A stretch of DNA of 64,000 nt from Candidatus Microgenomatus sp. (GCA_020724805.1 DYGI01000001.1:111157-175156), one strand, 5' to 3'. Numbered from the stretch's first letter, positions 356 to 17,305 are shown. The notes: generated by a model from the sequence alone, not told the origin. Made by a program: numbers and translations.

Positions 356-1890
356 CCACGGTTCCTAAACTTTTTACCGCGGAGTTGGACGGAATTGAGG
401 CGAGCGAAATCGAAGTGGAGGCCGACCTGAATGTCGGCCTCCATGCGTTCACCATCGTCGGGCTTGCGGACAAGGCCGTGGCGGAATCCAAGGAGCGCGT
501 GAACTCAGCGCTTAAGCACCTCGGAGTACGGCAACCCACACGCGAGAATCGCCGCATCACGGTAAACCTTGCTCCCGCTGACATAAAAAAAGCGGGCTCT
601 CACTACGACCTCGCGATTGCGCTCGCATATCTCCTCGCCAGCGAACAAATAAAACCATTCGACCCTGCGCGAAAACTTTTTGTTGGAGAGCTTTCCCTCG
701 ACGGAACGCTCCGCTCCGTCGCGGGCATTTTAAACATCGCGCTTTTTGCGCGGGAGCGCGGATTCACTGAAATTTTTGTTCCGAGCGAAAATGCGTCCGA
801 GGCGGCGGTCGTTCCGGAAATCTCCGCATTCCCCGTTTCTACGCTCCGTGATCTCGTAATGCATCTCGATGGCACTCGCACGCTCACTCCTCAACCACGC
901 GCGACTCTTGCTCCGCAGTTTCGCGCGGGCTCGGTTGCATTCGTCGATATCCGCGGCCATGACGCCGCGAAACGCGCGCTCCTCGTCGCTGCCGCGGGAG
1001 GTCATAACGTACTTCTTTCCGGACCGCCCGGCACCGGCAAAACCATGCTTGCGGAAGCATTCGCGGGGATTCTTCCTCCGCCGCAAGAAGAGGAAATACT
1101 TCATGTGACACGGATCTGGAGTGCGGCCGGTCTCACCATGAAAGAGCCGCTCGTCAATGCGCGTCCGTTCCGGGCTCCTCACCACAGCGCATCCGCGGTC
1201 GCTATCCTCGGCGGCGGCGCCAATCCAAAACCCGGAGAAGTTTCCCTTGCTCATCGCGGTGTCCTTTTCCTTGATGAGTTTCCGGAATTCCACCGGGACG
1301 TCCTCGAAGGCCTCCGCCAGCCACTTGAAAGCGGAGAAATACTTGTCGCGAGAGCCAAAAAAACCCTCGTTTTTCCTGCTCGTTTCACGCTTATCGCCGC
1401 GATGAATCCGTGTCCTTGCGGCTATTTCGAGGACCCAGCACATGAGTGCCGATGCAGCGCCGCGGAAGTATTCCGTTATCAAAGAAAAATATCAGGTCCT
1501 CTTCTCGATCGTATCGATATACAACTCGAAATACCGCGCATTCCCACCGAAGAGCTTCACGCCACGCGGGACCACACACGGGGAAATGATGAAAAAATCC
1601 GAGCGCGTGTTCTTTATGCGCGCGAATTCCAAAAAGAGCGCTTCAAAAAACATGAGCGCGTCCTTTTTTCGAACAGCGAAATGAGCTCGCGGGAGGCGGA
1701 ACAATTCATAACGCTTGATACTGAGGCCGACGCACTTTTAAAGCGCGCGCTCGATCGCTCTCTTCTTTCACCGCGCGGTTATTACCGCACCCTGAAAGTT
1801 GCGCGAACCATCGCGGATCTCGACAGGTCACCACAGGTACGTGCGCCCCATATCGCGGAAGCGCTTCAATATCGGGTAAAACAAGAATAG
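352..1890 (+). CDS. comM: YifB/ComM family Mg-chelatase-like AAA+ ATPase
   Basis: 512 aa; N-terminal Lon-like domain, Walker A LSGPPGTGKT, Walker B VLFLDEF, CxC..C motif, C-terminal MgChl domain. Confidence 0.85.
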   Translation: MTTVPKLFTAELDGIEASEIEVEADLNVGLHAFTIVGLADKAVAESKERVNSALKHLGVRQPTRENRRITVNLAPADIKKAGSHYDLAIALAYLLASEQIKPFDPARKLFVGELSLDGTLRSVAGILNIALFARERGFTEIFVPSENASEAAVVPEISAFPVSTLRDLVMHLDGTRTLTPQPRATLAPQFRAGSVAFVDIRGHDAAKRALLVAAAGGHNVLLSGPPGTGKTMLAEAFAGILPPPQEEEILHVTRIWSAAGLTMKEPLVNARPFRAPHHSASAVAILGGGANPKPGEVSLAHRGVLFLDEFPEFHRDVLEGLRQPLESGEILVARAKKTLVFPARFTLIAAMNPCPCGYFEDPAHECRCSAAEVFRYQRKISGPLLDRIDIQLEIPRIPTEELHATRDHTRGNDEKIRARVLYAREFQKERFKKHERVLFSNSEMSSREAEQFITLDTEADALLKRALDRSLLSPRGYYRTLKVARTIADLDRSPQVRAPHIAEALQYRVKQE

Positions 1891-1895
1891 GGAAT

Positions 1896-2684
1896 ATGGG
1901 AAAAAGATTGGGTCAACATTTCTTGAAGGACAAGAAAATTCTCTCTGCAATTGCGCATGAGGCTTTTTCCTTGTCCGCTCATCCTTATATTGTGGAGGTC
2001 GGTCCTGGGCACGGGGAGCTCACCAATGAGCTTCTCGCGCAAGGCGCATCGCATATTGTCGCCGTAGAACGGGATGTGAGCTTAGCCGAGCGTCTCGCTC
2101 GTTCACTGGCTCCACAATCAAGCGCGAGGTTGGAGATTATCAAAGGCGACGTGAGAGAGGTTCTTCCGAAGCTCCCCGCTATCCCCTGCGTTATCGTAGG
2201 CAATATTCCCTATTACCTTACCGGATTCTTGTTTCGACTCCTCGGCGACCTTGTGGCGCGCAGAGCTTTTCCTATCCAACGCGCCGTGTTTCTTGTTCAA
2301 AAAGAAGTTGCGGAACGTGCGATTGCCGATGCTCCGCACATGAATCTCCTTGCCGCAACTCTTCGGGGGTGGACTCGTCCCCACATTGTGTTCGCGGTTG
2401 CGCGCCATAAATTTTTTCCTCCCCCAAAGGTGGATTCTGCGCTCCTTGTGCTTGAAATCGAGCATGAAGCCACAGGGGAAGCTCTTTCCCATTACTTTGA
2501 AACCGCAAAAAAGTTGTTTCGCCAGCCGCGAAAAACGCTCGTGAACAACTTGCGAGAGTCGCTTTCGATTCCACGTGACGAGGCGGAACAAATAGTGTCG
2601 CTCCTTGGCCTCGCGGAGAGCGCACGAAGCGCGCTTCTTACGCAGGGACACATCAAAACCATTTCAAAAATGATGTATAATTGA
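1896..2684 (+). CDS. rsmA: 16S rRNA (adenine1518/1519-N6)-dimethyltransferase RsmA/KsgA
   Basis: MGKRLGQHFL start, VEVGPGHGELT SAM motif, NIPY motif; 262 aa. Confidence 0.85.
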   Translation: MGKRLGQHFLKDKKILSAIAHEAFSLSAHPYIVEVGPGHGELTNELLAQGASHIVAVERDVSLAERLARSLAPQSSARLEIIKGDVREVLPKLPAIPCVIVGNIPYYLTGFLFRLLGDLVARRAFPIQRAVFLVQKEVAERAIADAPHMNLLAATLRGWTRPHIVFAVARHKFFPPPKVDSALLVLEIEHEATGEALSHYFETAKKLFRQPRKTLVNNLRESLSIPRDEAEQIVSLLGLAESARSALLTQGHIKTISKMMYN

Positions 2685-2691
2685 GAGGAAC

Positions 2692-3483
2692 TTGGCGTCG
2701 CCAAGGCCTTTCATGACCCGGAAAACTATAGCCATAGCGATACTTATGGGAGGAGCGCTTGGCGCATTCCTCATTACGCGCCTCGCAACCCCTTCCGAAC
2801 GTGACTTGAAAACGCTTTCCATCACCCAAGGGCAAGGAGGAGAGCTTGCGTTCGCGTTCGGAAATGCGGAATTGTCAGGAAGTTTACTGGATACAATATC
2901 AGGTGATTCAAATTTCACCGAAAGCGTGGTTCAAAAATATGGGGAAGAAATTCTTCGGATAAATCCGAGAGGATCCTCCGCAAGTGCGGTCGCGCTTCCT
3001 CCGGAGGGGACACTCGAGAGCCTTATTGTGGAGGCGGTGGAGCGACCGTTTGTGTTTTCTTCGTTCACTGAACGCGATATCAGAACCTCCTCCGGAAAAA
3101 CTAGGGAAGCGCTCGTTTTCTATTTGAATACAATCGTCGCAATACAGGAGGAACGGCTCAGCGAACACGCGAGTTCACTGCTTGGCGCAGTTGCACGCTT
3201 CGTGAGTGAGAACAATGGGCGCGAATTGGAACTCGCACAAAACGCTATGCGACTTTATATCGGAGACCTCCTTAAAATTTCCGCACCCGCCCCTCTCGCG
3301 TCGTTTCATTTGGGATTGCTGAACCTCTGGCAAAAGCGAGTCGCACTTACGAATACCATCCTTGAAAGCGCGGATGATCCGTTGAAGATTGTGGCGGCGG
3401 TGGAACATCTCTCACAAACCGCGGAGGAAGAAACGAGATTGACCGAACTTCTTGTGTTGAATATTTCGAAACTTCATTTTTAG
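2692..3483 (+). CDS. hypothetical N-terminally membrane-anchored protein, first gene of the T4SS-like operon
   Basis: 263 aa ORF; TM helix after the MTRKTIAIAILMGG internal start; no recognisable domain; co-directional and abutting the next gene. Confidence 0.4.
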   Translation: MASPRPFMTRKTIAIAILMGGALGAFLITRLATPSERDLKTLSITQGQGGELAFAFGNAELSGSLLDTISGDSNFTESVVQKYGEEILRINPRGSSASAVALPPEGTLESLIVEAVERPFVFSSFTERDIRTSSGKTREALVFYLNTIVAIQEERLSEHASSLLGAVARFVSENNGRELELAQNAMRLYIGDLLKISAPAPLASFHLGLLNLWQKRVALTNTILESADDPLKIVAAVEHLSQTAEEETRLTELLVLNISKLHF

Positions 3484-3486
3484 CCC

Positions 3487-5274
3487 ATGGAATTCTCTCG
3501 CCGCTTCCTCGCGCTTCTCCTCATCGCCTCTTTTGCCGCGGGCGCATTTGCGCCCGCGTTCGCGTTTGCACAGGCGAACAACGCGGTCGCTGAATGCACC
3601 GTCGACATGGCCATAAATTCTTTGGGTGGAAAGATCCTTGGGGTAGCGAAGGACGTGGGAAATGCACTTATAGATGCGGTGGAGGACGTTCCTGTTGTAG
3701 GAGGCATCATCGAGGGAATAGGGGGTATTTTCGGCCTTGGGGAAGATGAGAGCAAAGGCTCAAGCGCCGATGACCCCATGTATGTGAAAGAATCGGGTGA
3801 ACAAAAGGATGAGGTCAAAAAACTTCAATTCGATAGCTGTATAAACGCTATCAAAGATACGGCGTTCAAGGTAGCACTCGCAAAGCTCAAAAAGCGTCTT
3901 TTGGACCGCATGACCGACGACATCATTGGATGGATCAATGGGAACGGGGACCCGAAATTCATTACTAACTTCGGCGATTTCTTGGAAGATGCCGCACAAG
4001 CTGCGGTAGGCGACACCGCGCGCGCGCTCGGACTTGCGGAACTTTGCACTCCTTTTAAATATCGCGTGCCACAATTACTCACCAAAGTACCCGAGTTCTC
4101 GGAAAGCGTGCGGTGCACTCTCGATGATATTGTGGAAAACGTCGAGGGATTTTATAACGACTTTGAACAGGGTGGGTGGCTCGCGTATACGGAACTCTGG
4201 AAACCGAACAACAACCCATTTGGAATATTTCTCAAAACGCATGACCAAATTCTTAAAGAAACCGCGAAGAAGGAGGATGAGGCGCGCGCGGCAGCGACTA
4301 TAGGAGGGGGATATACTCCGGTGTATCAGTGTGTTGAGTGGACGCTTTCCGGAGTTCGGAAAAGCGACAAAAAATTTGTTTCTTTCAAAATTCCCGCGGA
4401 CGAAAGTTTTCCGTATTTTCACCCGACGCTTCCCCCCGCAGAAAATTCTCCCGCCTACCAAAACGCTTTGAACACGCTCATAAAACCTAACTATGAGTGC
4501 ACGAGGCCGGAGTGGTCGCTCCCTCCCTCAGCGACCCAACAGATCGCTGCAATTCCTTACGTTGCCGACACGCAAGTGGTGGCAAACTCCGACGACCTTT
4601 CACCTTACGTGAATGCCATCTTCGATGCCGCAGTGAATCGCGTTATTAAAGAGGGGGTAAAAGGACTCCGCGGCAACCTTTCAAAGCTTAGAAGTGAAAG
4701 CACCACAGGTCGATCGCCCGAACAATACCCCGAGGGCGATCCGTACCGCGGCTACGGAGAGGAGTATGAGAACGCCACAAATTTCACACGGCAACTTCGC
4801 ACCGAGATAGGGGCAAAAATAGAATCGGCACGTGACAATGTGGGGATCGCGAGCACCACACTTACACGACTTGTGGCGCTTAATAATGAATTGATCGCCA
4901 CCACTACGCTTCTCGCCGATTGCGAGCAGGGAAGGACGGAAACAAGCTATCAGACGTGTGCGAACACATCATCAACGTTGGTTGCGGCAAATTCCGCGAA
5001 ATCGAGGTTTGTCGCCGACCGCGAATCGCTCACCGAAGCGCTTACCAAAATCCAGGAACTTGAGGATGCATTCGAAGAAAATACCGACCTCAGCGAGGCG
5101 GCGTTACGCGTGCTTCTTTCCAATCTCGGTTCGATACACCTTACGCTTAAAGACATGATTTCAAAGCAACAAGCCTTTGAAATGGGATTGCGAAATGGAC
5201 TTGTCATACAAAGGCAGGCGCTTCAGGCATGTCAAACAGGCATCTATTCGTGCACCTGGACTCCCGCTCCATAA
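3487..5274 (+). CDS. large secreted protein of the T4SS-like locus
   Basis: 595 aa with a cleavable signal peptide (LLLIASFAAGAFAPAFAFA-QA); no recognisable catalytic motif; starts 4 nt after the previous gene. Confidence 0.5.
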   Translation: MEFSRRFLALLLIASFAAGAFAPAFAFAQANNAVAECTVDMAINSLGGKILGVAKDVGNALIDAVEDVPVVGGIIEGIGGIFGLGEDESKGSSADDPMYVKESGEQKDEVKKLQFDSCINAIKDTAFKVALAKLKKRLLDRMTDDIIGWINGNGDPKFITNFGDFLEDAAQAAVGDTARALGLAELCTPFKYRVPQLLTKVPEFSESVRCTLDDIVENVEGFYNDFEQGGWLAYTELWKPNNNPFGIFLKTHDQILKETAKKEDEARAAATIGGGYTPVYQCVEWTLSGVRKSDKKFVSFKIPADESFPYFHPTLPPAENSPAYQNALNTLIKPNYECTRPEWSLPPSATQQIAAIPYVADTQVVANSDDLSPYVNAIFDAAVNRVIKEGVKGLRGNLSKLRSESTTGRSPEQYPEGDPYRGYGEEYENATNFTRQLRTEIGAKIESARDNVGIASTTLTRLVALNNELIATTTLLADCEQGRTETSYQTCANTSSTLVAANSAKSRFVADRESLTEALTKIQELEDAFEENTDLSEAALRVLLSNLGSIHLTLKDMISKQQAFEMGLRNGLVIQRQALQACQTGIYSCTWTPAP

Positions 5275-5280
5275 CCATCC

Positions 5281-7158
5281 ATGACTCGATTCTTCCGTTC
5301 ACTTAAATCATCGCGCTTCGGGACTTTGCTCGTCCTTGGAGGTTTTCTTTTGGGGTTCCCGTTTCCCGCGCGCGCGGGTCTTTTTAGCATCGAGGGGATC
5401 GCGGTAGGAGCCATTGGCGTCGTCGCTTACGTAGTGAATTACATCGCGGGCTACCTCGGAGGCATAGCGCTCGCCATCGTATCGTGGTTCACCAATGTCG
5501 CGATGGAGCTTAATCGCCGCGTACTCGACACGGATTCCATAGTCCACGTGGGGTGGAATATCACCCGCGATATCGCAAACCTTGGTTTTGTGCTCGTCAT
5601 TATAGTCATTGCGGTATCGGTCATGTTGCGTTTTGAAACCTATGGAAGCCGCAAAGTGCTTACCCGGCTCATCGCAGCCGCTATTGTGGTGAATTTTTCG
5701 CTCGCCATCATGGGGGTATTTCTTCAATTTGCCGACACTTTCACTAATTTCTTTCTCTCGCGCATTCCGAGTCCAAGCGATCTTGGAACCGCGCTCGCTT
5801 CATCGTTTGAGGCACAAAAATTCTTTTTGAACGCCCAAAATTTCAGTTCCGACGCCGTAAGCGGCGCTACTATCACCGCGTCCATGCTGTCAAACATCGC
5901 CTCGATGGTTTTTTCGACCGCGTTCGTCCTTATTGCAACCATCGTCATTGGCACCTTCGCCATCATGCTCCTTGTCCGTTACCTTCACCTTGTTATCCTC
6001 GGCATCCTCGCTCCTCTCGTGTGGCTTTTCTGGGTCATTCCCGACTTGGGGGGCCAATTTAAGACGTGGTGGAACGCGTTCATTAAGTGGACGTTCTTCG
6101 CCCCAGCCTCTTCGTTCTTCATCTACCTCTCACTTGTGGCGGTGGAACGCATGAAGGATATAAAACTCGAAGTGTTCACCGCAGGTTCCGGTTTCTTTGA
6201 GACGGTTTTTTTGAGCGTCGCAACGCAAGGCGCCCAAATGGTGGTTATCGCCGGTCTTATGCTCGGCGGGCTTATCGTTGCAAACAAAATGGGCATCGAG
6301 AGCGCGAATATCGGAATGAACCTCGCGAACAAGGCTAAGGCGGGCGCGATCGGATGGGCGGGCAAACAAGCTCAGCGTGGCGGACGAGCGCTCGGCGACA
6401 CTCTCCGTACTTCGGGAAGAAAATTCGATCCCACCACAAAACAGACCACCACCCGGCTTCAACGTTGGGGTTCAGCCCTCCAGGGGGTACCTGGACTTCA
6501 AGGTGTCGGAAGCTATCTTGCGAAACAGGGAACTGAGGTTCCCAAGAAACGTCCCGAAGATATAGAGAAGTACCGCAAGGATGAGCTTGAAGCGCTTACC
6601 AATGAGGGCATCGAGAAGCTTGCCACGCAGCGCTTAAGTCCGACGCTGGCTGACCCCACTCGGGTTGCCGCCTTAGCGCAAGAGCTGGCAAAGAGAAACT
6701 TGTTCGGAAATCTCGATCCCAAGCGTCAATCACAATTTATTGATGTGGCGGAACGCATGGGAACTGCCCAAGCTATCTACAACAATCGCCCCGATCTCGT
6801 TGAGCCTCGTCCAGGCGAGACAAAAGAAAAAGCGATTGAACGGGTTACCAAAAAAATCAAAACCGCTGACATTACCCAAATTTCTGACAGGGTATTGGGA
6901 GACTCCAGTAATGCGAGGCCTCCAGAGCGCAGCCAAATGACGGTAACGCTCAATCTCAGTAATCCACAACTTGGGAAACTCGGGACCGAAGGAAGCGCCG
7001 ACCAGATTGAGGCAATTCGTAACAGCTTGCAGTGGGCGCTTACCGCAACGCCTCAGCAATTACAGCAATTCCAACCACCCCTTACACAGGATGAATGGAG
7101 CAATCTCCAAAGAATGGTTGATTATATAAACGACAATCCTAACTGGCAAAACATTTAG
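5281..7158 (+). CDS. VirB6/TrbL-like polytopic membrane protein with hydrophilic C-terminal extension
   Basis: 625 aa; ~6-8 predicted TM helices in the first ~330 aa, then a soluble tail; this is the architecture of VirB6/TrbL-family channel components; it sits in an operon with VirB3- and VirB4-like genes. Confidence 0.5.
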   Translation: MTRFFRSLKSSRFGTLLVLGGFLLGFPFPARAGLFSIEGIAVGAIGVVAYVVNYIAGYLGGIALAIVSWFTNVAMELNRRVLDTDSIVHVGWNITRDIANLGFVLVIIVIAVSVMLRFETYGSRKVLTRLIAAAIVVNFSLAIMGVFLQFADTFTNFFLSRIPSPSDLGTALASSFEAQKFFLNAQNFSSDAVSGATITASMLSNIASMVFSTAFVLIATIVIGTFAIMLLVRYLHLVILGILAPLVWLFWVIPDLGGQFKTWWNAFIKWTFFAPASSFFIYLSLVAVERMKDIKLEVFTAGSGFFETVFLSVATQGAQMVVIAGLMLGGLIVANKMGIESANIGMNLANKAKAGAIGWAGKQAQRGGRALGDTLRTSGRKFDPTTKQTTTRLQRWGSALQGVPGLQGVGSYLAKQGTEVPKKRPEDIEKYRKDELEALTNEGIEKLATQRLSPTLADPTRVAALAQELAKRNLFGNLDPKRQSQFIDVAERMGTAQAIYNNRPDLVEPRPGETKEKAIERVTKKIKTADITQISDRVLGDSSNARPPERSQMTVTLNLSNPQLGKLGTEGSADQIEAIRNSLQWALTATPQQLQQFQPPLTQDEWSNLQRMVDYINDNPNWQNI

Positions 7159-7159
7159 T

Positions 7160-8044
7160 ATGACCTCGAAAGAACTGCGAGAAAAATTAGCAGAAGTTCC
7201 TCAAGTCATTCGCGAATGGTTCGGCTCCGAAGAGGTGGTGGCTCACATAAGAAGCTTGAGTAATGAGCTGGGGACTCCCCGAGAAAAGAGGGGCGCTATT
7301 CCCCGCCTTCTTCTTCGTCTTGAGGTGGGGGATTTGGAGCCTCAATTCTTTTCGGGCGAACTTGCCCAAGAGCTCGGCCTCACAAAGGAACGCGCGCTTG
7401 CCGTTGCTTCGGAAATAAGGAAAACAATACTCCATCCCAAAAAAGAGGCCCTGAGTGATTATGGTATCGACCAATTCCTTCTCGAAGAATTCAATCTCCC
7501 TATTCCGCGAATGCGTCGCGAAACCGTGACGCCTGTCGCGGCTCCTTCCTCAGCTCCGACGTTTGGGTCTTCGACCGCAATACTCCACCCGCCTTCTGTA
7601 CCGCAGGAACCTTCTCCACCTCCTTCTCCCACAACAACAAAATCCACAGTTACTCCTTTCGTGCTTCATGAGGAAAAGCCTCTTACTTCCGAGGCAAAGA
7701 AAGAACCCATGAAAGGATTTTCGCTCCCATTCGGGCTTTTTAAGCCTAAAGCTCCCGAATCGACTATTTCGAGAGCGAGCGTAGAAGCCCCCAAGCAGGT
7801 ACATTACAGCGAATACCGTTCCGGTGGCGCGCCTGGAGGCGGTGGAGAATTTATCAACTTAGAGACCTTCGGAAAAACGTCGGTTGCGCCAAAATCTGTT
7901 ACCCCGCCAACCCCTCCGCCTCCTTCATCATCGCCCGCCACTCCTCTTACAATCAAAAAACCCGACAGTGCGGGGCTCGCAAAAGCGCCAGAGAGCGGAA
8001 CTGGAACGCCAAAAATAGAAAAAAACACCGTGGATCTTCGCTAA
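7160..8044 (+). CDS. Pro/Ser/Thr-rich hypothetical protein
   Basis: 294 aa, low complexity with PPPS and TPPTPPPP tracts; start overlaps the previous stop. Confidence 0.4.
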   Translation: MTSKELREKLAEVPQVIREWFGSEEVVAHIRSLSNELGTPREKRGAIPRLLLRLEVGDLEPQFFSGELAQELGLTKERALAVASEIRKTILHPKKEALSDYGIDQFLLEEFNLPIPRMRRETVTPVAAPSSAPTFGSSTAILHPPSVPQEPSPPPSPTTTKSTVTPFVLHEEKPLTSEAKKEPMKGFSLPFGLFKPKAPESTISRASVEAPKQVHYSEYRSGGAPGGGGEFINLETFGKTSVAPKSVTPPTPPPPSSSPATPLTIKKPDSAGLAKAPESGTGTPKIEKNTVDLR

Positions 8045-8050
8045 CGTGTC

Positions 8051-8554
8051 ATGGCAACATTCCAAGTCCCACAGTTCATTGATGAACAACCGAAGGTAGT
8101 CGGGTTTCTCACGCTTCCGCAATTTCTCTATCTCGCCGCGGCGGCAGGAATAAGCTTCGCATCGTTTTACGTATTTACGTTCATTCTTTGGCTCTTTATC
8201 ACGCTTGTGGTCGCCACGGTGGCCATCGCGCTTGCATTCGTAAAGGTAAACGGGCAATCGTTCCCTGCGGTGCTCCGCTCCGCGCTCACATATTACTGGA
8301 AGCCGCGTATCTATACCTGGTCACGCACGCTTCCCGAATCAAAAATCCCCGGCGTTGCCGAACTCGAGAAAATCGAAGCCATCCGTCAACGTATGGGGAT
8401 CGAGGAAAAACTGAAATCGCTTGCGCTTCAGATTACTACCGGGAAAATTTTTTCTCGTCCCGCCGAAAAAGTCTCCAAGTCGCAGGAGTATCAGGTCGTT
8501 ACGTATCTCACCGGGGAGAAGAAAGTCGCAAAGCGGGTGGATTACAAGGAATAA
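8051..8554 (+). CDS. PrgI/VirB3-like small membrane protein
   Basis: 167 aa; N-terminal FIDEQPKVVGFLTLPQFLYL followed by two TM helices resembles PrgI/TcpE (VirB3 analogue) proteins; lies immediately upstream of VirB4, the canonical synteny. Confidence 0.45.
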   Translation: MATFQVPQFIDEQPKVVGFLTLPQFLYLAAAAGISFASFYVFTFILWLFITLVVATVAIALAFVKVNGQSFPAVLRSALTYYWKPRIYTWSRTLPESKIPGVAELEKIEAIRQRMGIEEKLKSLALQITTGKIFSRPAEKVSKSQEYQVVTYLTGEKKVAKRVDYKE

Positions 8555-8590
8555 TTGGTAACGCAGAAACAATAACGATACACTGAAGCT

Positions 8591-9238
8591 ATGCCGAAAG
8601 AACCCACTACGCCTACCCAAGAACTCGTCGACGTAAAGGAGATACGTGACGGCGTACTTTATTTGAAGAACGGCAGCGTTCGCAGAGTCCTTATCGTGTC
8701 CGGAGTGAATTTCGATCTTAAATCCGAAGCTGAACAAGGTCTTATTCTCGGAAGCTTTCAGAATTTCCTGAATACCCTCGATTTTTCGGTTCAATTCTTC
8801 ATACACTCGCGCAAAGTGAACGTCGACGCGTATCTCGCTTCCATGGGCACAAGGATGGAAGAGGAAACGAGCGAATTGCTGAAAATCCAGATCAGTGAGT
8901 ACATACAGTTCATCCGGACTTTCGTAGAAGAAAACGCCATCATTTCCAAAACTTTTTTTGTGGTAGTGCCGTATGAATCCTTGATACCGGAGGGTAAGGT
9001 AAGTGGCCTTGCGTCGCTTTTTAGAAAGACTCCGAAGACCGCAGGTTCGTCTCCACTGGGAAATAATCCGCAGGAGGTGCTTTCCCAGCTTGAGCGGCGC
9101 GTAAATCAGGTGGTGGATGGACTGGCTCAGATCGGTTTGCGGGCAGCGCCGCTTGAAAACGACGCGGTAGTGGAACTTTTTTACAACCTCTACAATCCGG
9201 AACTCGTGGAGGGGAAAAGGGCGGTGAGTAAAGAGTAG
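8591..9238 (+). CDS. VirB4/TrbE N-terminal domain protein (split VirB4, part 1)
   Basis: 215 aa; size and position match the N-terminal membrane-associated domain of VirB4; ends with TAG TAG 7 nt before the ATPase ORF, which is in a different frame. Confidence 0.5.
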   Translation: MPKEPTTPTQELVDVKEIRDGVLYLKNGSVRRVLIVSGVNFDLKSEAEQGLILGSFQNFLNTLDFSVQFFIHSRKVNVDAYLASMGTRMEEETSELLKIQISEYIQFIRTFVEENAIISKTFFVVVPYESLIPEGKVSGLASLFRKTPKTAGSSPLGNNPQEVLSQLERRVNQVVDGLAQIGLRAAPLENDAVVELFYNLYNPELVEGKRAVSKE

Positions 9239-9245
9239 TAGCGCT

Positions 9246-11000
9246 ATGGAAACCAAAATGCCAAAACCGTACGAACCCTCTTCGGAGGACACCCGCAGCG
9301 TTATCGCGCCGGCGGGAGCCGAGATGTCGTCGAACTATTTGAAGCTTGGGGATTACTACGCAAAAACGCTTTTTGTGTTCACCTATCCGCGCTACGTGGC
9401 AAGCGGGTGGTTTTCGCCGCTCATCAACCTCCCTGACATGCTCGATATTTCCATTTTCGTGCACCCCACCGATACCGGGGTAGCGCTGCGAAATCTCAGG
9501 AAAAAAGTTGCGCAAGTGCAGGCGGAGATGATGGAACGCGAAGAAAAGGGATTCGTGCGCGATCCCGTGCTCGAGACCGCATACCATGACCTTGAAAACC
9601 TCCGCGATACGCTCCAGCAGGCGCAGGAAAAGCTCTTTAAAGTGGGAGTCTACATCACGCTCTATGGAAAGTCTCCCGAAGAACTTTCAAAGCTTGAGGA
9701 TAAAATACAGTCCATTTTGGAATCCAAGCTGGTGAACATAAAACCGGCGCTCTTCCGCCAAGACGAAGGGTTTCTCTCGGTACTCCCTACCGGCTCGGAC
9801 AAACTCGAGATCAATACCCCCATGAACTCGGGGCCTGCATCTTCGCTTTTCCCGTTCGTATCGCCGGACCTCACTTCCGACAAGGGAATTCTCTACGGCA
9901 TCAATCTTCATAATCAATCACTCATCATTTTTGACCGTTTTTCCCTCGAGAATGCGAATGCGGTGGTGTTCGCGAAGTCCGGTTCCGGAAAGTCCTATGC
10001 GACAAAACTCGAGATTTTGCGCTCCATGATGATGGGTACGGACATGATCGTTATTGACCCGGAGAATGAGTACCAAAATCTCGCGAACGCGGTCGGGGGA
10101 AGTTATTTCAAAATCTCTCTCACCTCCCCAAGCCATATCAACCCCTTCGATATCCCGCTGATTCCTGAGGGAGAGGAACCGTCCGACGTGTTCAAATCCC
10201 ACATTTTAAACCTCACCGGCCTCGTGAAGCTCATGCTCGGTACGGTCACGCCGGAAGAAGATTCACTCCTCGACCGCGCCATTACGGAAACCTACGCATC
10301 CCGCGACATCAACGCGGAAAATTTTGGAAGCATCAAAGAATTGAATCCTCCTCTCCTTGAAGACCTTCAAACGGTGCTCGCGAATACCGAGGGAGGAAGG
10401 TCCATCGCCACTCGTCTTGAAAAATTTGTGAAGGGTTCGTATGCGGGATTTACGAACGCGCCCACGAACATCGACGTAAAGAATCGGCTGATTGTGTTCT
10501 CTATCCGCGACCTTGAAGAGGAGCTTCGCCCTATCGCGATGTATATCGTATTGAACTTCGTGTGGAACTTGGTTCGTTCCGAACTCAAGCGCCGCCTCCT
10601 TATCATCGACGAGGCGTGGTGGATGATGAAATATAAGGATTCCGCATCGTTCCTCTTCGGCCTCGTAAAGCGCGCTCGAAAATACTACCTCGGCATCACC
10701 ACCATCACTCAAGATGTGGAGGACTTCCTTCGGTCCGAATACGGCCGCCCTATCGTCACCAACTCTTCCATTCAACTCCTCATGAAACAATCGCCCACGT
10801 CCATTGAAGCGGTCGCGTCCGCATTCGACCTCACCGAGGGTGAGAAAATGCTCCTCCTTGAAGCGGGGGTTGGCGAGGGGCTTTTCTTTGCGGGTTTGAA
10901 ACATGTGGCGGTAAAAATCATCGCGTCCTACACCGAAGATCAGATTATCACCACGAATCCGGAGCAAATGCTCGAAATAAAAGGATTACGGAAGGAGTGA
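9246..11000 (+). CDS. VirB4/TrbE/CagE-family type IV secretion ATPase (C-terminal ATPase part)
   Basis: 584 aa; Walker A FAKSGSGKSYAT, Walker B LLIIDEAWWM (the DEAW motif characteristic of VirB4/TraC). Confidence 0.8.
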   Translation: METKMPKPYEPSSEDTRSVIAPAGAEMSSNYLKLGDYYAKTLFVFTYPRYVASGWFSPLINLPDMLDISIFVHPTDTGVALRNLRKKVAQVQAEMMEREEKGFVRDPVLETAYHDLENLRDTLQQAQEKLFKVGVYITLYGKSPEELSKLEDKIQSILESKLVNIKPALFRQDEGFLSVLPTGSDKLEINTPMNSGPASSLFPFVSPDLTSDKGILYGINLHNQSLIIFDRFSLENANAVVFAKSGSGKSYATKLEILRSMMMGTDMIVIDPENEYQNLANAVGGSYFKISLTSPSHINPFDIPLIPEGEEPSDVFKSHILNLTGLVKLMLGTVTPEEDSLLDRAITETYASRDINAENFGSIKELNPPLLEDLQTVLANTEGGRSIATRLEKFVKGSYAGFTNAPTNIDVKNRLIVFSIRDLEEELRPIAMYIVLNFVWNLVRSELKRRLLIIDEAWWMMKYKDSASFLFGLVKRARKYYLGITTITQDVEDFLRSEYGRPIVTNSSIQLLMKQSPTSIEAVASAFDLTEGEKMLLLEAGVGEGLFFAGLKHVAVKIIASYTEDQIITTNPEQMLEIKGLRKE

Positions 11001-11001
11001 T

Positions 11002-11502
11002 ATGAGCACGCCAAAATTCAACCTTATCGAGATAATTTTGGGGAGCATGGTAGCGCTCCTTATCGATATTGTGAGCATCTTCGCGGACCTTCTCGCGGGC
11101 GTCGGAGGGTTTATAGTGCAATCGCTCTCATGGCTCCTTTTCACACTGTGGTTTCACTTGAAGGGCGCGAAGGCGACCGCATCGCTTGTAAGAAGATTTC
11201 TTATTCCCATTGCCGTGCAGATCGTTCCGGTCATTCCCACCCAGATATTCACCTTTCTCGTATCCGTTTATATGGAGAATCATCCGGAAAAATTCGGCTA
11301 CGTTACAACCGCGGTTTCCCTTGCTAAAATGGACATAAAGAAATTGAAAAACATAAAAGAAGCGGAAGGGACGATGGCTTCTATAAAAGAGGGGAGAACG
11401 CAATATCGCGCCGCGCGCCGGGAATTCCAAAGAGAGCGGGATGATTATTTTAAGGAAAAAAAGGAAGGGACAAATAACGAACTCTATAAAAAAGCGGCAT
11501 GA
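11002..11502 (+). CDS. small polytopic membrane protein of the T4SS-like locus
   Basis: 166 aa, 3-4 TM helices, basic C-terminal tail; start overlaps the VirB4 stop. Confidence 0.4.
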   Translation: MSTPKFNLIEIILGSMVALLIDIVSIFADLLAGVGGFIVQSLSWLLFTLWFHLKGAKATASLVRRFLIPIAVQIVPVIPTQIFTFLVSVYMENHPEKFGYVTTAVSLAKMDIKKLKNIKEAEGTMASIKEGRTQYRAARREFQRERDDYFKEKKEGTNNELYKKAA

Positions 11503-12173
11503 AAAAAATCGTCTTTACCATATTAGTAGTCCTCATTTCCCTCGCGGCGGGAGCTGCAGGAATTTTCGCACAAAGTCAGCCCACCCAAGCGTTCGTAACT
11601 TGGCGCGCCGAGAACTTTTACCCTTCGTATTTCGAAGGTCGAGTCCTTCCTTCCTCGGGATCTTCTGTATCTCTCGCGGTGGAAGTAACGCAGGGCGGAA
11701 TTTTACGAGACCTTGCGCAGGCGGACATTGGTTGGCAGGTGGACGGAAAATTCATCGGGAGCGGACGCGGAATGAAGCAGGCAAAATTCACTGCCACAAA
11801 GGGGAGTGGAAACTCTCATTTCGTTCGAGTGTCTATCGCGCAAAATAGCGAGCTCGTTGAAGTGTCAGTTCGCATTCCCACCACTGCGCCCACGGTGGTT
11901 ATCGATGCACCGTATGTCGACAAACGAGGCACGGAGGGGAAAATTACACTTTCTTCTCTCCCTTATTTTTTCAACGCCTCTTCACTCGACGATTTTCGCT
12001 TTTCGTGGACCATTGATGGGGAACGTAGAGAGGTTGGAAGCGATACTACCCTTACCATCGCCGACGCTGCAAGCATCGTCGCGCGAACTTTTCGTATAGA
12101 CCTCGAAGCCTTGAATACTTTAAACCCGATGGAAACCGCGACCGCACGAAACCAATTCGCGATTACCCCATGA
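11499..12173 (+). CDS. secreted protein of the T4SS-like locus
   Basis: 224 aa with signal peptide MKKIVFTILVVLISLAAGAAGIFA; 4-nt overlap with the previous gene. Confidence 0.4.
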   Translation: MKKIVFTILVVLISLAAGAAGIFAQSQPTQAFVTWRAENFYPSYFEGRVLPSSGSSVSLAVEVTQGGILRDLAQADIGWQVDGKFIGSGRGMKQAKFTATKGSGNSHFVRVSIAQNSELVEVSVRIPTTAPTVVIDAPYVDKRGTEGKITLSSLPYFFNASSLDDFRFSWTIDGERREVGSDTTLTIADAASIVARTFRIDLEALNTLNPMETATARNQFAITP

Positions 12174-12976
12174 AACTGACATACATCGCATTAGTTGCGG
12201 GAATTCCTCTCCTTATGATGTCGGGGTCGTTTCTTGCGAACGCCGCTTCGTTTGATCTGCCAGATATTTCATGTCCGGCAGGACTCAATTGCGCCACTCT
12301 CCCAAGCTCCGAAAGTATTACCGGGAACCCTCTCGCGGGAACCCCAGGAAACCCCGCGGCGTATATCGCGCGCCTTTATCAGATTGCACTTGCGATTGCC
12401 GGCATCCTTGCGGTTGCTATCATTGTGACCGGGTCTCTTTTCTATACTTTCGCGGGCGGAAACACCGATCGGCAACGGGAGGGGAAAGACATGATAACCT
12501 CCGCGCTCTGGGGCGTCGCCCTTCTCTTCGGTTCGTATCTCATTTTGAACACCATAAACCCCGAGCTCGTAACGCTAGACCCTTTGAGAGGGCCATACGC
12601 CAGCACCACAAGCGAACGTATCAGTTTCGCTGGTCAACTTGGAAAATGCTCGCCTGAGTCCATTACAGGACTCACGCTCTGCCCCCCAGGACAGGACGAA
12701 GACGATGTCCCTGGGTGCGTTGATGGTATTACATTGAACCTTAGATTTTCGGAGATGTCTTCACAGTGCAGCGGAAGGTTTAGAACGATTGGTGGAGCGA
12801 CATTCATTTATAACAAAACGAACCCAAGTTTACCCGCGGTGTGCCACCCGTTTTATAAAAAATACAGCGCAACAAGTACCCAAGATAGAGCGACATATAA
12901 CCCAGATGTCGAATCTCCAAAACTTAGTGAAGCAAGTAGTTGGAAGCCTGGGGAATGGCAATTTTGTGGTAGATAA
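12170..12976 (+). CDS. VirB2/TrbC-like pilin candidate with Cys-rich C-terminal extension
   Basis: 268 aa; signal peptide, then two closely spaced hydrophobic helices (IALAIAGILAVAIIVTGSLFY ... ALWGVALLFGSYLILNTI) as in VirB2/TrbC pilins, followed by a Cys-containing domain. Confidence 0.4.
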   Translation: MKLTYIALVAGIPLLMMSGSFLANAASFDLPDISCPAGLNCATLPSSESITGNPLAGTPGNPAAYIARLYQIALAIAGILAVAIIVTGSLFYTFAGGNTDRQREGKDMITSALWGVALLFGSYLILNTINPELVTLDPLRGPYASTTSERISFAGQLGKCSPESITGLTLCPPGQDEDDVPGCVDGITLNLRFSEMSSQCSGRFRTIGGATFIYNKTNPSLPAVCHPFYKKYSATSTQDRATYNPDVESPKLSEASSWKPGEWQFCGR

Positions 12977-12982
12977 TATTCC

Positions 12983-14110
12983 ATGAAACCTGTTTATAAA
13001 ATACTCATTTCGCTTGGCGCGATCATTGCCGTTAGTGCCGCAGGATATTTTATTTGGTGGCTTTTCATCGATGCCCCTACGGATACCGGCCCTTCTCCGG
13101 ACGGTTCTCTTCCATCTAGTGCCGGTTCCGCTTCAACCTCCACTTCTTCCTCTGGAGAAATTTCCGATTCCTTGTTTGCAACACCGCGCGCGCTTTCGGA
13201 CCGCACCATTTTCGATTACTGGCTTGTTCCTGAAACCGGAGAAGTCTATTACTTCACATCCGAGGGGTATGTGTATGCGGTGAAACAAGGTCCTGACCTG
13301 GAAATTTCCCGTCAATCTATTGTGTCGCTGAACCGAACTGAACCTTCTCCCGATGGACGTAAAGTGCTTGTCTCATTTGGAAATCCCAATGACCCGCAAT
13401 GGGCGATATTCGATTCCGTCGATGCGGTGTGGCGCCCCTTGCCGCGTGAAATAGTCAACGCCGGGTGGGGGAGGGCCTCGAACGAACTTATCGCGTCGGT
13501 AAGAAACGGAAACGAGATAAATCTCTCGCTGGTGGACATATCAAAGACCCCGAATTCCTATACCGTTATCCTTCGAAGTTTTGCCGTTGAAGGAGTGTCT
13601 TTTTTTGCTCTCACCGAGGGGAATATTGGGATAGCAGAAAGAGCCTCTTCGTATGCGGGGGGGCGAGTGTGGAGTTTAAATCCTACCTCTAAAACACTTA
13701 CCCTTCTCCTTGCGCCAGCGCTCGGGCGTACCGTGAAAGTGGACATTAAAGAAAATGTGAGTTATCTCGGAAGCGCCGAGGGATTCTCCTTTGCGGACCG
13801 CTCACTCCAAAACGCTTTTCCTTTCTTTCTTAATACTCTCCCGGACAAATGCGCAGCACACGCGAGCACCACATACTGCTTCGTGCCAAGGAATTTGAGC
13901 GAGCGAGTAACGTTCCCGGACGATTACTTTATGCATGCGTTTTACAGTATAGATTCTCTTTATCAAATCGCGCATGGTGATGGAACTATTACACCTTTTA
14001 TTTTAGGAGATGTTTCTTTCGATGCTTCCCGCGTGCGCGCACAAAAAAATACGGTCTACTTTATAGACCGCTACACCTCGCTTCTTTACGCGCTCGCAGT
14101 CGCTCAATAG
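12983..14110 (+). CDS. N-anchored secreted protein with Ser/Thr-rich linker
   Basis: 375 aa; N-terminal TM/signal anchor, S/T-rich linker, C-terminal beta-rich domain; last gene of the co-directional block. Confidence 0.4.
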   Translation: MKPVYKILISLGAIIAVSAAGYFIWWLFIDAPTDTGPSPDGSLPSSAGSASTSTSSSGEISDSLFATPRALSDRTIFDYWLVPETGEVYYFTSEGYVYAVKQGPDLEISRQSIVSLNRTEPSPDGRKVLVSFGNPNDPQWAIFDSVDAVWRPLPREIVNAGWGRASNELIASVRNGNEINLSLVDISKTPNSYTVILRSFAVEGVSFFALTEGNIGIAERASSYAGGRVWSLNPTSKTLTLLLAPALGRTVKVDIKENVSYLGSAEGFSFADRSLQNAFPFFLNTLPDKCAAHASTTYCFVPRNLSERVTFPDDYFMHAFYSIDSLYQIAHGDGTITPFILGDVSFDASRVRAQKNTVYFIDRYTSLLYALAVAQ

Positions 14111-14112
14111 GT

Positions 14113-14541
14113 CTACGCAAGGCGCTTGATAATCACGCGCCTCTCCTTTCCTGTACCCACGCTCTCGGTGGTGAGTTCGGGGTGGGTAGCTATCTCTACG
14201 TGCACAAGTCTCCGTTCGTATCCATTCATGGGAGGGAGTTCCACTTCCTCTTTTGTGGTAACCGCCTTTCGCGCCGCTGCGCGGGCAAGTTCCGCAATGA
14301 GCCGCTCGCGTTCCTTCCGATAATAGTTCAAATCCACCACGTAAAGCGGAAGTTTTTCGCGCCGCATGATAAGGCTGACCACGTGTTCGAGTGCGGGAAG
14401 CATAAAACCTATTTCTTCGCGCGTAAGACCGTCGCCGATATGTACGCCGATTTTCCGGTGTTCTTCCTCGACCTCTACGCGAACTTCCGTAAAGCCCATG
14501 GAGGCGACGAGCGTGCGAATTTTTTCCGTTATTTGTTCCAT
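14113..14541 (-). CDS. jag: Jag/KhpB-like RNA-binding protein (KH + R3H)
   Basis: 142 aa with a C-terminal R3H-like segment (GYERRLVHVEIA) and the conserved position downstream of yidC. Confidence 0.75.
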   Translation of the reverse strand: MEQITEKIRTLVASMGFTEVRVEVEEEHRKIGVHIGDGLTREEIGFMLPALEHVVSLIMRREKLPLYVVDLNYYRKERERLIAELARAAARKAVTTKEEVELPPMNGYERRLVHVEIATHPELTTESVGTGKERRVIIKRLA

Positions 14542-14551
14542 ATACGAATGT

Positions 14552-15223
14552 TTAGCTGGTGGAAATCTCTTTTTTGATGGTCTTATTGATCACAATCTGC
14601 TGTCCCACCGAAAAGACCGTAGACGCGACCCAATAAAGCCCGAGAGCCGAGGGGAGCGAGGTGAGCACAATGAGCGATATGGCGGGTCCGGCAAAAAGCG
14701 CGAAAAGCCGTGTCATTTTTGCGGCCCCCTCATTCGCCCCTTTCCCTTGCGGCATAAGCCGCGCCTGAATGTACTGAAGTCCTGCCGCGAGAAGCGCTAT
14801 CGCGATGCTCTTCTCATCAAGATTTATTAACCCAAGAAAGGTGTGTGAGTCAAATACCGCGTTTCCCAATTCTCGTGTGAATATCTGGAAAAGTGCGATG
14901 AAGATGGGGAGCTGAAGGAGAAGGAAAAAGATTCCGGAGAGAGGATTTACCTTATGCTCGCGATATAAGGCCATGAGGGCGCGCCCTTGCGCCTCACGAT
15001 CTCCTTTATGATTGTCTTGAATTTCCTTTACTTTCGGCTGAAGCGTCTGAAGAATGCTCTGATCTTTTGCGCTCTTCCAAAAAAGGGGGAGAAGGACTAT
15101 GCGAACCGCGATGGTGAGAAGAATTATGGAAATTCCTAGGTCGTGCGGGGGGACCACTTGATGTATCCATACCAACACCGCAAATACAGGTTCATAGATG
15201 TATGCGTGAAAAAGTGATGACAT
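14552..15223 (-). CDS. yidC: membrane protein insertase YidC (short Oxa1 type)
   Basis: 223 aa, 5 TM, conserved YidC core motifs (PLSGIFFLLLQLPIF); sits in the rnpA-yidC-jag cluster. Confidence 0.85.
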   Translation of the reverse strand: MSSLFHAYIYEPVFAVLVWIHQVVPPHDLGISIILLTIAVRIVLLPLFWKSAKDQSILQTLQPKVKEIQDNHKGDREAQGRALMALYREHKVNPLSGIFFLLLQLPIFIALFQIFTRELGNAVFDSHTFLGLINLDEKSIAIALLAAGLQYIQARLMPQGKGANEGAAKMTRLFALFAGPAISLIVLTSLPSALGLYWVASTVFSVGQQIVINKTIKKEISTS

Positions 15224-15236: not shown

Positions 15237-15491
15237 TCAGATTTTCAGAGCTTTTTGTAGTTCGTTAACTAACTCGGAAAATGGGGTGTCCGCCGCTTTC
15301 TCTGACGCGACGATTGTGGTGGGCCGCGTAGGCAATGTCCCGCCCTTTCTTAACGCGGCGCGAATCCGCCTCCGGATGCGGTTCCGTGTTACCGCGAGAG
15401 CCGCGTTTTTCCGGGGAACCACGATAATGAACGGGGTTTTGGTCCCTTGCGGCGCGGCGCGTATACGGAAAAGCGGGGAAGTCCCGCTCAT
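15237..15491 (-). CDS. rnpA: ribonuclease P protein component
   Basis: RNR motif region VTRNRIRRRIR; start trimmed to the internal ATG (MSGTSPLFRIR) that follows the rpmH stop by 1 nt. Confidence 0.8.
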   Translation of the reverse strand: MSGTSPLFRIRAAPQGTKTPFIIVVPRKNAALAVTRNRIRRRIRAALRKGGTLPTRPTTIVASEKAADTPFSELVNELQKALKI

Positions 15492-15492
15492 T

Positions 15493-15630
15493 TTACCGCG
15501 GCGCGAGGCGGCGACGCCCCTTCCGCCGCCTCCGGCGCAGCACCGAACGCCCATTAGAGGTTCTTGAGCGAACGAGGAACCCGTGGGTCTTCTTTCGCTT
15601 ACGGCGGTTCGGCTTATAAGTGAAACTCAT
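15493..15630 (-). CDS. rpmH: 50S ribosomal protein L34
   Basis: Hand translation of the minus strand gives [45 protein letters not shown]; not in the ORF track because it is <60 aa. Confidence 0.85.
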
Positions 15631-17154: not shown

Positions 17155-17305
17155 TTGCGACGGTACTTTCCCTTCCCCACCCTCACCGATTTTTTCCACA
17201 AGTTTTCCCACCCACTCACTAAAGAAAATTTGTTCACTGAATTGAAAAAAATGACATTTCCACATATGCACACCACCTACTACTTCTTCTACTGAATTTA
17301 TATAT
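17155..17305. other. candidate oriC (dnaA-dnaN intergenic): DnaA-box-like 9-mers plus an AT-rich unwinding element
   Basis: TTTTCCACA (17192-17200), GTTTTCCCA (17203-17211) and ATTTCCACA (17256-17264) are each 1-2 mismatches from TTATCCACA; an AT-rich run (TGAATTTATATATATGAAAATAATAG) lies at 17293-17318. Confidence 0.5.

Follow-up and report, generated by a model that had tools for sequence, protein, structure and literature searches.

The question raised by this locus is what a VirB4-type ATPase and ten close-packed partner genes do beside the inferred replication origin of a bacterial chromosome, at a place where no relaxase or coupling protein is encoded. The locus lies in a 64,000-nucleotide (nt) stretch of DNA, called the window here, from Candidatus Microgenomatus sp. 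(GCA_020724805.1, DYGI01000001.1:111157-175156). A first-pass annotation made from the sequence alone had described an operon of eleven co-directional open reading frames (ORFs) resembling a type IV secretion system (T4SS), and these ORFs were recovered at exactly the same positions, all on the plus strand, spanning 2692-14110 between rsmA and the jag-yidC-rnpA-rpmH / dnaA-dnaN origin block. They are designated A to K in their order on the DNA (Table 1). We are confident that the locus encodes a chromosomal, non-conjugative T4SS of the Patescibacteria (candidate phyla radiation, CPR), descended from monoderm MPF_FATA machinery and organized in the Paceibacteria arrangement; this confidence covers the identity of the system and its general mode of action. 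The identity is proposed because G passes the cutoff of the CD1110 VirB4 family, a PrgI homologue scores above its gathering score, F is TrsD-like and fused to G in some relatives, and a VirB6-like protein and a pilin could be assigned through orthologues. The system is considered non-conjugative because no relaxase, type IV coupling protein (T4CP) or peptidoglycan hydrolase was found in the 64 kb of the window and 6.5 kb upstream of it, and fixed and functional because its gene order is kept in all related loci compared, its VirB4 is consistently more conserved than DnaA, and the Walker motifs are intact.

The ATPase G matched Pfam P-loop_TraG (1.5e-29) and also AAA_10, and it scored 385 bits against the NCBIfam model NF045971 (VirB4-like conjugal transfer ATPase, CD1110 family), whose cutoff is 325. 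The sequence of the VirB4 C-terminal domain structure (PDB 4ag5) was matched at 9.5e-44, and BLASTP aligned G with residues 224-772 of PrgJ from pCF10 (9e-44, 26% identity over 550 residues). Both Walker A (KSGSGKS) and Walker B (LLIIDEAW) are intact. These similarities assign G to the VirB4 ATPases of the monoderm CD1110 / MPF_FATA type. Since the alignments begin only at residue 224 of PrgJ and at position 183 of the 752-position CD1110 profile (183-732), G lacks ~180-220 residues at its N-terminus compared with a full-length monoderm VirB4.

The profile matches of F, the gene preceding G, identify it as the VirB4 N-terminal domain detached as a gene of its own. F matched NCBIfam TrsD (1.2e-7), positions 103-233 of VirB4_plasma (6.8e-9) and positions 2-113 of CD1110 (9.9e-5); a precomputed Pfam match to TraC-like PF26593 was also available, and hhalign gave 99.8% probability to a 274-amino-acid (aa) Pontibacillus protein that is likewise encoded upstream of virB4. 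In six relatives (loci L048, L053, L055, L058, L067 and L073) F and G form a single ORF of 716-795 aa, and in one such fused protein TrsD was matched at residues 6-123, CD1110 at 163-770 and TIGR00929 over the whole length. The two are separate genes in ~65 other relatives, so the split was gained or lost within Paceibacteria. The matches of F to VirB4 N-termini and the fusion in relatives thus bear out the split VirB4 of the first-pass annotation.

The VirB3/PrgI-like, VirB6-like and pilin-like assignments made there also found profile support, for two of the proteins by way of their orthologues. E matched Pfam PrgI (PF12666; 9.1e-8, 33 bits against a gathering score of 27), contains two transmembrane (TM) segments, and showed a weak match to TraL (TIGR02762); hhalign gave 92% probability to a Pontibacillus protein of 116 aa and 64% to PrgI of C. 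perfringens. By homology, E is assigned as PrgI/VirB3, the membrane partner of VirB4. Hydropathy predicted ~6-7 TM segments and a hydrophilic C-terminal extension in C. The protein itself had no match in the current Pfam or NCBIfam scans, and a precomputed Pfam match to TrbL_3 exists for exactly this protein. Five of its 39 orthologues matched Pfam TrbL/VirB6 (best 1.1e-6), one matched TrbL_4, and hhalign related C at 71% probability to a 779-aa protein of the Pontibacillus VirB4 cluster. This indirect support suggests that C is a VirB6/TrbL-like channel subunit of the "extended VirB6" kind. J, which had been listed among the large secreted proteins without recognisable domains, turned out to be the putative pilin. 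Its match to Pfam T4SS_pilin (PF18895; 2.2e-5, 24.9 bits) is just below the gathering score of 26.6; 36 of 40 orthologues matched the same family (best 6.3e-11), and the family profile reached 96.8% in hhalign with a Pontibacillus "Mbov_0395 family pilin-like conjugal transfer protein". J carries a signal peptide and, at 66-127, a hydrophobic hairpin of two helices (TM segments 72-90 and 108-126); its C-terminal extension is Cys-rich and variable, and its orthologues range from 85 to 594 aa. These features support J as a VirB2-like T4SS pilin. When orthologue alignment profiles were compared with PDB sequences, J retrieved nothing and C retrieved coiled-coil noise only.

To place the locus among its relatives, the best 80 genome matches of G were considered, and all of them were from Patescibacteria at 60-92% identity. 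The nearest was a Brennerbacteria metagenome-assembled genome (MAG) at 92%, followed by Jorgensen-, Wolfe-, Lipton- and Giovannonibacteria at 60-84%, and these similarities identify the source genome as a Paceibacteria (Brennerbacteria/Jorgensenbacteria-like) MAG. VirB4 proteins of plasmids were at most 36% identical to G, and the nearest relatives outside the CPR were from Firmicutes and Actinobacteria (29-36%).

Thirty-six related loci, from different Paceibacteria species, extended for at least 9 kb to either side of virB4 and were compared gene by gene, with the presence of a component scored at tblastn E<1e-5. The order rsmA-(A)-B-C-(D)-E-F-G-(H)-I-J-K-jag/yidC-dnaA-dnaN-PBP1A was collinear in all 36, which is more than chance would give. 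The rsmA gene was upstream of the cluster in 35 loci and dnaA was at most 10 kb downstream in 29, so that the block is conserved next to dnaA in relatives. The components of the ATPase and channel were present throughout, and other members of the cluster were detected less regularly (Table 1). In every one of the 29 genomes in which both proteins could be compared, VirB4 identity (median 70%) exceeded DnaA identity, with a median excess of 8 points in loci that had been chosen by VirB4 similarity. VirB4 was also far more conserved than DnaN, YidC or RsmA, making it the best-conserved protein of the neighbourhood, and the extracytoplasmic proteins were only 22-54% identical across loci. DnaA identity between the related species was only 48-84%. 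Taken together, these figures describe a machine that is fixed and under strong selection, with surface parts that evolve fast, and not a decaying mobile element. With housekeeping genes on both flanks, the cluster is chromosomally fixed, as had been proposed.

Table 1. Positions of the T4SS cluster and its flanking genes in the window, with the number of related loci (of 36) in which each cluster component was detected
Feature	Position	Strand	Product or context	Loci of 36
DksA/TraR zinc-finger ORF	20-355	+	upstream, in the co-directional run	
comM/yifB	352-1890	+	directly upstream context, 5-7 nt gaps	
rsmA/ksgA	1896-2684	+	directly upstream context, 5-7 nt gaps	
A	2692-3483	+	263 aa; unassigned family	12
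B	3487-5274	+	595 aa; secreted, unannotated family	34
C	5281-7158	+	625 aa; VirB6/TrbL-like	36
D	7160-8044	+	294 aa; no family match	13
E	8051-8554	+	167 aa; PrgI/VirB3 by homology	36
F	8591-9238	+	215 aa; TrsD-like	36
G	9246-11000	+	584 aa; VirB4 ATPase by homology	36
H	11002-11502	+	166 aa; small membrane protein, 3 TM segments	7
I	11499-12173	+	224 aa; secreted, beta-rich	29
J	12170-12976	+	268 aa; putative VirB2-like pilin	32
K	12983-14110	+	375 aa; predicted anchored beta-propeller	29
jag	14113-14541	-	origin block	
yidC	14552-15223	-	origin block	
rnpA	15237-15554	-	origin block	
rpmH	15493-15630	-	origin block	
dnaA	15583 or more likely 15778 to 17154	+	origin block	
dnaN	17306-18415	+	origin block	

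The conjugation genes that would be expected in a mobile element were searched for by Pfam scans of the eleven ORFs and of 37 others in the window, its largest among them, and in the 6.5 kb upstream by precomputed annotation; together these regions represent 70.5 kb of a 570,864-bp contig. No relaxase, VirD4/TcpA-type T4CP or VirB11 was found in these scanned ORFs or in the upstream region, nor was any peptidoglycan hydrolase or lytic transglycosylase, in agreement with what the first-pass annotation had said of the locus. It had further considered that a relaxase or T4CP might be encoded immediately outside the window, which would make this an ordinary integrative conjugative element (ICE); none was found in the 6.5 kb upstream, and the downstream side of the locus lies inside the window. 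Nor is the virB4 gene an isolated remnant among neighbours that profiles fail to support. SLT, CHAP, M23 and lysozyme domains were absent from the eleven ORFs, and in hhalign none of the families matched PrgK, the C. perfringens SLT protein or the Pontibacillus M23 protein. In the search for a VirB8-like protein, A, I and the other ORFs had no profile match to PrgL, to PrgD or to PDB sequences; VirB8 homology is usually visible only at the fold level. There were no VirB9/10-like matches among the eleven ORFs, the archaeal Ced proteins were not matched either (CedB, 42.7 bits against a cutoff of 700; CedD, 20 bits against 600), and no integrase or att-like flanks were found at the locus. The other genes scanned were housekeeping genes, among them PolA, RuvABC, a Mur ligase, ClpB, aminoacyl-tRNA synthetases, RNase J and PNPase.

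One candidate for VirB11 was considered and rejected. The T2SSE-family ATPase at 27614-29290 on the minus strand (T2SSE 1.4e-115) is 558 aa long and contains an MshEN domain, hence it is of the PilB/GspE type and is a component of a type IV pilus or type II secretion system, separate from the T4SS. It adjoins two ORFs without Pfam match (29373-30761, plus strand).

A system of this kind, including the missing conjugation genes and the position next to dnaA, has already been described between 2023 and 2025. Quinonero-Coronel et al. (2025, Microb Genom, PMC12102498) surveyed 3,035 genomes of Patescibacteria and recovered a VirB4 clade that is monophyletic, lies within MPF_FATA and is widely associated with TrsD, PrgI/VirB3, VirB6 and VirB2-like pilins; they described the system for 2,407 Patescibacteria assemblies. 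Relaxases were present in only 103 of the 3,035 genomes, and T4CP homologues were mostly far from virB4 (5,713 VirD4 homologues in 2,918 genomes). In Paceibacteria and Microgenomatia the reported location adjoins dnaA, dnaN, ksgA, rnpA and rpmH, and an import of DNA or other macromolecules from the host was proposed. The present locus agrees with the Paceibacteria arrangement of that survey in its VirB4 of MPF_FATA ancestry, the separate TrsD-like protein beside virB4, PrgI/VirB3, VirB6, a PF18895 VirB2-like pilin, the absence of a relaxase and of a nearby T4CP, and the chromosomal site beside the same five genes; nothing essential differs. The differences are that a single pilin gene is present here instead of a pilin array and that no VirB1 or VirB8 homologue was detected. 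The survey left the non-canonical neighbours uncharacterised, which are A, B, D, H, I and K in this locus (B, I and K in 29-34 of the 36 loci).

The only member of this kind with genetic evidence is Southlakia epibionticum ML1, in which transposon sequencing (Tn-seq) showed that epibiotic growth requires the T4SS encoded by SEML1_0006-0019 (Wang et al., 2023, Cell, PMC10633639). Like the present locus, it is an origin-proximal chromosomal cluster with VirB4, PrgI, a VirB6-like protein and PF18895 pilins, without relaxase or coupling proteins, and with a presumed role at the host interface. Its pilin arrays are essential, and the authors suggested that the system "may instead export proteins". 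S. epibionticum belongs to the Saccharimonadia, a different class of the phylum from the present organism, and has a six-gene pilin array, a phage-tail-lysozyme/glucosaminidase (0006) and an NTF2-like VirB8-like protein (0012), none of which was detected here. Tubular structures, possibly T4SS pili, have also been reported at a parasite-host interface (bioRxiv 10.64898/2026.06.21.733656).

Among conjugative systems, the monoderm MPF_FATA T4SSs (pCF10 prgD-pcfC, Clostridium CD1110-type ICEs and pGO1 trs) share a CD1110-family VirB4 and a PrgI homologue with the locus; pGO1 also has TrsD as a separate protein, and the class likewise lacks outer-membrane core proteins. In contrast to them, the locus has no relaxase, MobC, T4CP, PrgK/CwlT-type hydrolase, PrgL/TraM VirB8-like protein or LPXTG adhesins, has a VirB2-like pilin, and is not on a mobile element, with housekeeping flanks and the same position in 36/36 loci. 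The closest plasmid VirB4 (36% identity) was found in an uncharacterised cluster on the megaplasmid of Pontibacillus sp. ALD_SL1 (NZ_CP062975, 350-361 kb; L085 5988-17006). That VirB4 is likewise short (621 aa) and is preceded by the TrsD-like 274-aa protein mentioned above, and the cluster also contains the 116-aa PrgI-like protein, a large VirB6-like protein and two Mbov_0395-type pilin-like proteins, with no relaxase annotated within 12 kb on either side. It differs in being on a Firmicutes megaplasmid, in having an M23 peptidoglycan endopeptidase after virB4, and in having no homologues of A, B, D, H, I and K. Its contents show that VirB2-like pilins and a split VirB4 are not unique to Patescibacteria among monoderms. 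The Helicobacter pylori ComB and archaeal Ced systems are VirB4-family-driven import machines without relaxase and offer a possible functional analogy, although the diderm VirB7/9/10 core of ComB is unmatched here, as are the Ced proteins.

What is added by the present locus is therefore limited to its accessory proteins and the comparative numbers. A, B, D, H, I and K had no hhalign match to pCF10 PrgC-PrgM/PcfA, to the C. perfringens CD1110-type plasmid or to the Pontibacillus cluster; among the families compared with these three systems, only C, E, F and J were matched. Judged by these profile comparisons, the six accessory proteins appear to match no known T4SS component. All-against-all hhalign among the eleven families gave no pair reaching 20% probability. 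The possibility that H is a second pilin or a second VirB3 was rejected on this result, as H showed no relation to the pilin or PrgI profiles.

Hydropathy analysis agreed with the signal peptides and polytopic topology claimed for several ORFs, in that A, B, I, J and K each have a signal or anchor segment at the N-terminus and C is polytopic. A is predicted to be bitopic, combining a single TM segment near the N-terminus (residues 13-31) with a domain outside the cytoplasm. The protein is fast-evolving and had no Pfam or NCBIfam match, and a 19-sequence profile found nothing in the PDB; its orthologue, where detectable among the 36 full loci, is always between rsmA and B. B has a signal peptide, a conserved Cys-containing core at ~120-400 with C187, C210 and C338 among the invariant residues, and a C-terminal bundle of long helices. 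Neither B nor its 39 orthologues matched Pfam or NCBIfam, and the orthologue alignment profile found coiled-coil noise only among PDB sequences. The AlphaFold2 model of B was of low confidence (pLDDT 60, pTM 0.35) and confident only at the beta-hairpins 279-344 and the helices 433-584, and a Foldseek search of the PDB with this model gave nothing at E<=0.001, all matches being generic helical bundles apart from TraC/VirB5 (1r8i) at rank 41, whose E value of 1.4 was not counted as evidence. Among 1.84 billion representatives, the profile of B retrieved 5,548 representative clusters at E<=1e-3, of which 2,542 also reached E<=1e-30, and these profile matches place B in a very large unannotated family of ~5,500 protein clusters.

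D has no TM segment or signal peptide and is probably cytoplasmic. An N-terminal helical domain is followed by a Pro/Ser/Thr-rich region, and the protein contains the short conserved motifs PFxLHEEK, FKGFSxPFGFFK, EFINLE and VDLR; no family match was found in Pfam or NCBIfam. H contains three TM segments and the conserved motif (H/E)NHPEKF, and its tail is charged. Pfam scans of H and its orthologues gave no family match and nothing recurrent, and an ORF of ~120 aa occupies the position of H in 18 loci with a recovered orthologue. I has a signal peptide and is beta-rich, and together with its 40 orthologues it gave only sporadic sub-threshold matches to PKD, PKD_3 or BiPBP_C, with nothing recurrent; it probably carries immunoglobulin-like (Ig-like) domains. 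K consists of an N-terminal TM anchor (4-27), a disordered Ser/Thr-rich linker (30-63) and a predicted extracellular seven-bladed beta-propeller (65-375), and its orthologue alignment profile gave weak TolB/WD40 hints among PDB sequences.

A working scheme can be drawn from these assignments. By homology, the two-polypeptide VirB4 (F and G) would dock on E and the VirB6-like C to form a translocon in the cytoplasmic membrane. As in other T4SSs, the ATPase would then drive extraction of the pilin J and its assembly by polymerisation into a pilus, or into a conduit across the cell wall. More speculatively, B, I, K and A may form an extracellular stalk, a tip, or a wall-spanning or host-binding part, D could be a cytoplasmic adaptor, and H a small membrane subunit. 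The machine would act at the contact site with the host cell, moving macromolecules rather than a plasmid. An import of host material, either nucleic acids or other macromolecules, is the most likely direction, a tentative preference that we would not call probable. It is favoured because no effector-like genes were found and because these bacteria are metabolically dependent, and the neighbourhood adds a weak hint, with comM directly upstream on the same strand and PNPase further upstream. ComM belongs to a transformation-associated helicase family. PNPase and VirB4 have recently been linked conceptually to RNA parasitism in Minisyncoccota. It seems unlikely, if conceivable, that A, B, D, H, I and K constitute a Paceibacteria-specific module that replaces VirB1, VirB8 and the adhesin and turns the VirB4/VirB3/VirB6/pilin core into an importer of host macromolecules, with B and K contacting the host and the whole coupled to comM/PNPase.

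The same genes could instead export effectors, that is, inject or release proteins that manipulate, permeabilise or kill the host, with nutrients gained indirectly, as in the Xanthomonas-type antibacterial T4SSs or the Streptococcus suis 89K system. That no relaxase was found is in keeping with a protein translocator, protein export is what Wang et al. suggested (PMC10633639), T4CP-less protein-secreting T4SSs such as Ptl and Brucella VirB exist (PMC12102498), and the secreted B and I could be substrates rather than parts of the machine. However, no candidate effector with a toxin or enzyme domain was found among the scanned ORFs of the cluster and its surroundings, the collinearity and conservation of B, I and K resemble those of structural parts, and most effector translocators require a T4CP, none of which is nearby; we regard export as somewhat unlikely. 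A further step down in probability is an organelle in which VirB4, VirB3, VirB6 and the pilin build only an adhesive pilus for host attachment and no substrate passes. Such a pilus would suit the conservation of the pilin, the essential pilin arrays of S. epibionticum, the length variation of the Cys-rich extension of J, which fits a host-binding surface, and the predicted beta-propeller of K, a typical binding platform. Patescibacteria already adhere by type IV pili (PMC12857230), though, and a PilB-type ATPase is encoded in the window; moreover, a VirB4 conserved above DnaA suggests more than an assembly factor for an adhesin. We consider it doubtful for these reasons.

Two explanations that keep a link to conjugation fare worse. 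That the locus serves conjugation or mobilisation, with its relaxase, oriT and coupling protein encoded at another site in the genome or too divergent to recognize, is very improbable. G does belong to a conjugation-type VirB4 family, and the VirD4 homologues counted in the Patescibacteria survey are commonly far from virB4; nevertheless, relaxases are rare in the same genomes (PMC12102498), the t4cp homologue of S. epibionticum is non-essential while its T4SS is essential (PMC12102498), and the housekeeping context is fixed in 36/36 species without integrase or att-like flanks. The last alternative, an integrated conjugative element that no longer functions and of which only a decaying remnant is left, could draw on the relaxase, T4CP, hydrolase and VirB8 missing from the scanned region, on the division of VirB4 into two genes, and on the slightly lower GC content of the locus (0.50-0.52 compared with 0.54-0.57 in most of the window). 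Yet the ORFs are all intact and tightly coupled, the split of VirB4 is itself conserved, with a fused form in some lineages, the homologous system of S. epibionticum is essential, and collinearity is complete between species that have diverged widely in DnaA, with VirB4 the best-conserved protein of the neighbourhood. The divergence of the loci excludes duplicates of a single element, and the remnant explanation, to which we give next to no credence, was rejected on the conservation data.

Several points weigh against a non-conjugative T4SS that imports host material. C and J are themselves below curated thresholds and were assigned through orthologues, and the placement of G in the Patescibacteria VirB4 clade rests on similarity and not on a tree. 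The roles given to A, B, D, H, I and K are guesses, that of B with a low-confidence model. No VirB8-like or VirB1-like component that would explain how the machine crosses the wall was found. The absence of a relaxase and T4CP covers 70.5 kb of the 570.9-kb contig, a limit that also speaks for the conjugative alternative. The comM/PNPase neighbourhood may be coincidental, origin-proximal housekeeping. In S. epibionticum comEC is dispensable while the T4SS is essential (PMC10633639, PMC12857230), so that simple DNA uptake through ComEC is not the essential role there.

The interpretation given by the first-pass annotation was thus supported and had already been published almost verbatim (PMC10633639, PMC12102498, PMC12857230). 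Nothing here is conceptually new compared with the published picture, to which the locus adds a clean and complete Paceibacteria example from a 571-kb contig. Patescibacteria, a substantial part of bacterial diversity, live on other cells and have minimal genomes, and their T4SS is among the few machines shown to be essential for an epibiotic lifestyle. The comparative data show strict collinearity, a VirB4 that is conserved above DnaA, and a VirB4 N-terminal domain that is mostly split off and sometimes fused. They also bring out uncharacterised, conserved candidates for the extracellular part, i.e., the B family, the K beta-propeller and the Ig-like I, together with the membrane protein H with its HNHPEKF motif. 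These four are sensible structural and genetic targets for learning how Patescibacteria tap their hosts.

The close packing claimed for the cluster, with gaps of 0-8 nt or 4-nt overlaps, was observed at every junction (1-7 nt gaps or 4-nt overlaps) except E-F, where the gap is 36 nt. A probably starts at ATG 2713 (256 aa, the public gene call) rather than at TTG 2692. The tight co-directional run begins upstream of A (Table 1), so the operon may not start with that gene. Further genes on the same strand lie beyond the start of the window: a 394-aa hypothetical protein, PNPase, an NYN (nuclease-like) protein and S15. A scan for sigma-70 promoters and terminators over 1-18.5 kb gave counts at or below the shuffled expectation and is therefore uninformative on the operon boundaries. 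The only recombinase near the locus is a XerC/D-like tyrosine recombinase ~9 kb upstream on the opposite strand.

The position beside the replication origin, also claimed before, held as far as the dnaA/dnaN block and the minimum of the cumulative GC skew at ~14-18 kb are concerned. The search for DnaA boxes gave 13 matches where 7.7 were expected, a count reached by 6 of 100 shuffles, with no strong cluster; two boxes matching at 8/9 positions are located at 17142-17200. Because the boxes are not significantly enriched window-wide, we infer oriC from gene context and GC skew rather than consider it demonstrated, and on that basis the T4SS cluster would be directly beside it. The longest dnaA ORF (523 aa, GTG start at 15583) overlaps rpmH. 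DnaA of the relatives is ~455 aa long, and its alignments to the 523-aa ORF start at residue 66, suggesting that the true start is probably Met66 at 15778, which would leave a spacer of ~147 bp between rpmH and dnaA. To the left of the inferred origin, the strand that carries the T4SS operon has a negative GC skew, and the operon would thus be transcribed toward oriC, head-on to replication. Its orientation relative to dnaA is identical in all related loci. A head-on orientation fits poorly with the published idea that proximity to the origin merely raises expression.

Two observations concern other parts of the window. Between 46000 and 48000 the GC content dips to 0.47, compared with ~0.55 on either side; two ORFs in this dip (46209-46865 and 46946-47524) have no Pfam matches, and a transfer-messenger RNA (tmRNA) gene at 45424-45742 is just upstream of it. 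At 51397-54846 (plus strand), a class-I aminoacyl-tRNA synthetase of 1149 aa resembling isoleucyl-tRNA synthetase (IleRS-like; tRNA-synt_1 3e-114, Anticodon_1, DUF5915) contains a histidine-phosphatase domain (His_Phos_1, 4.6e-32) inserted at residues 489-652, which separates the two halves of the catalytic domain.

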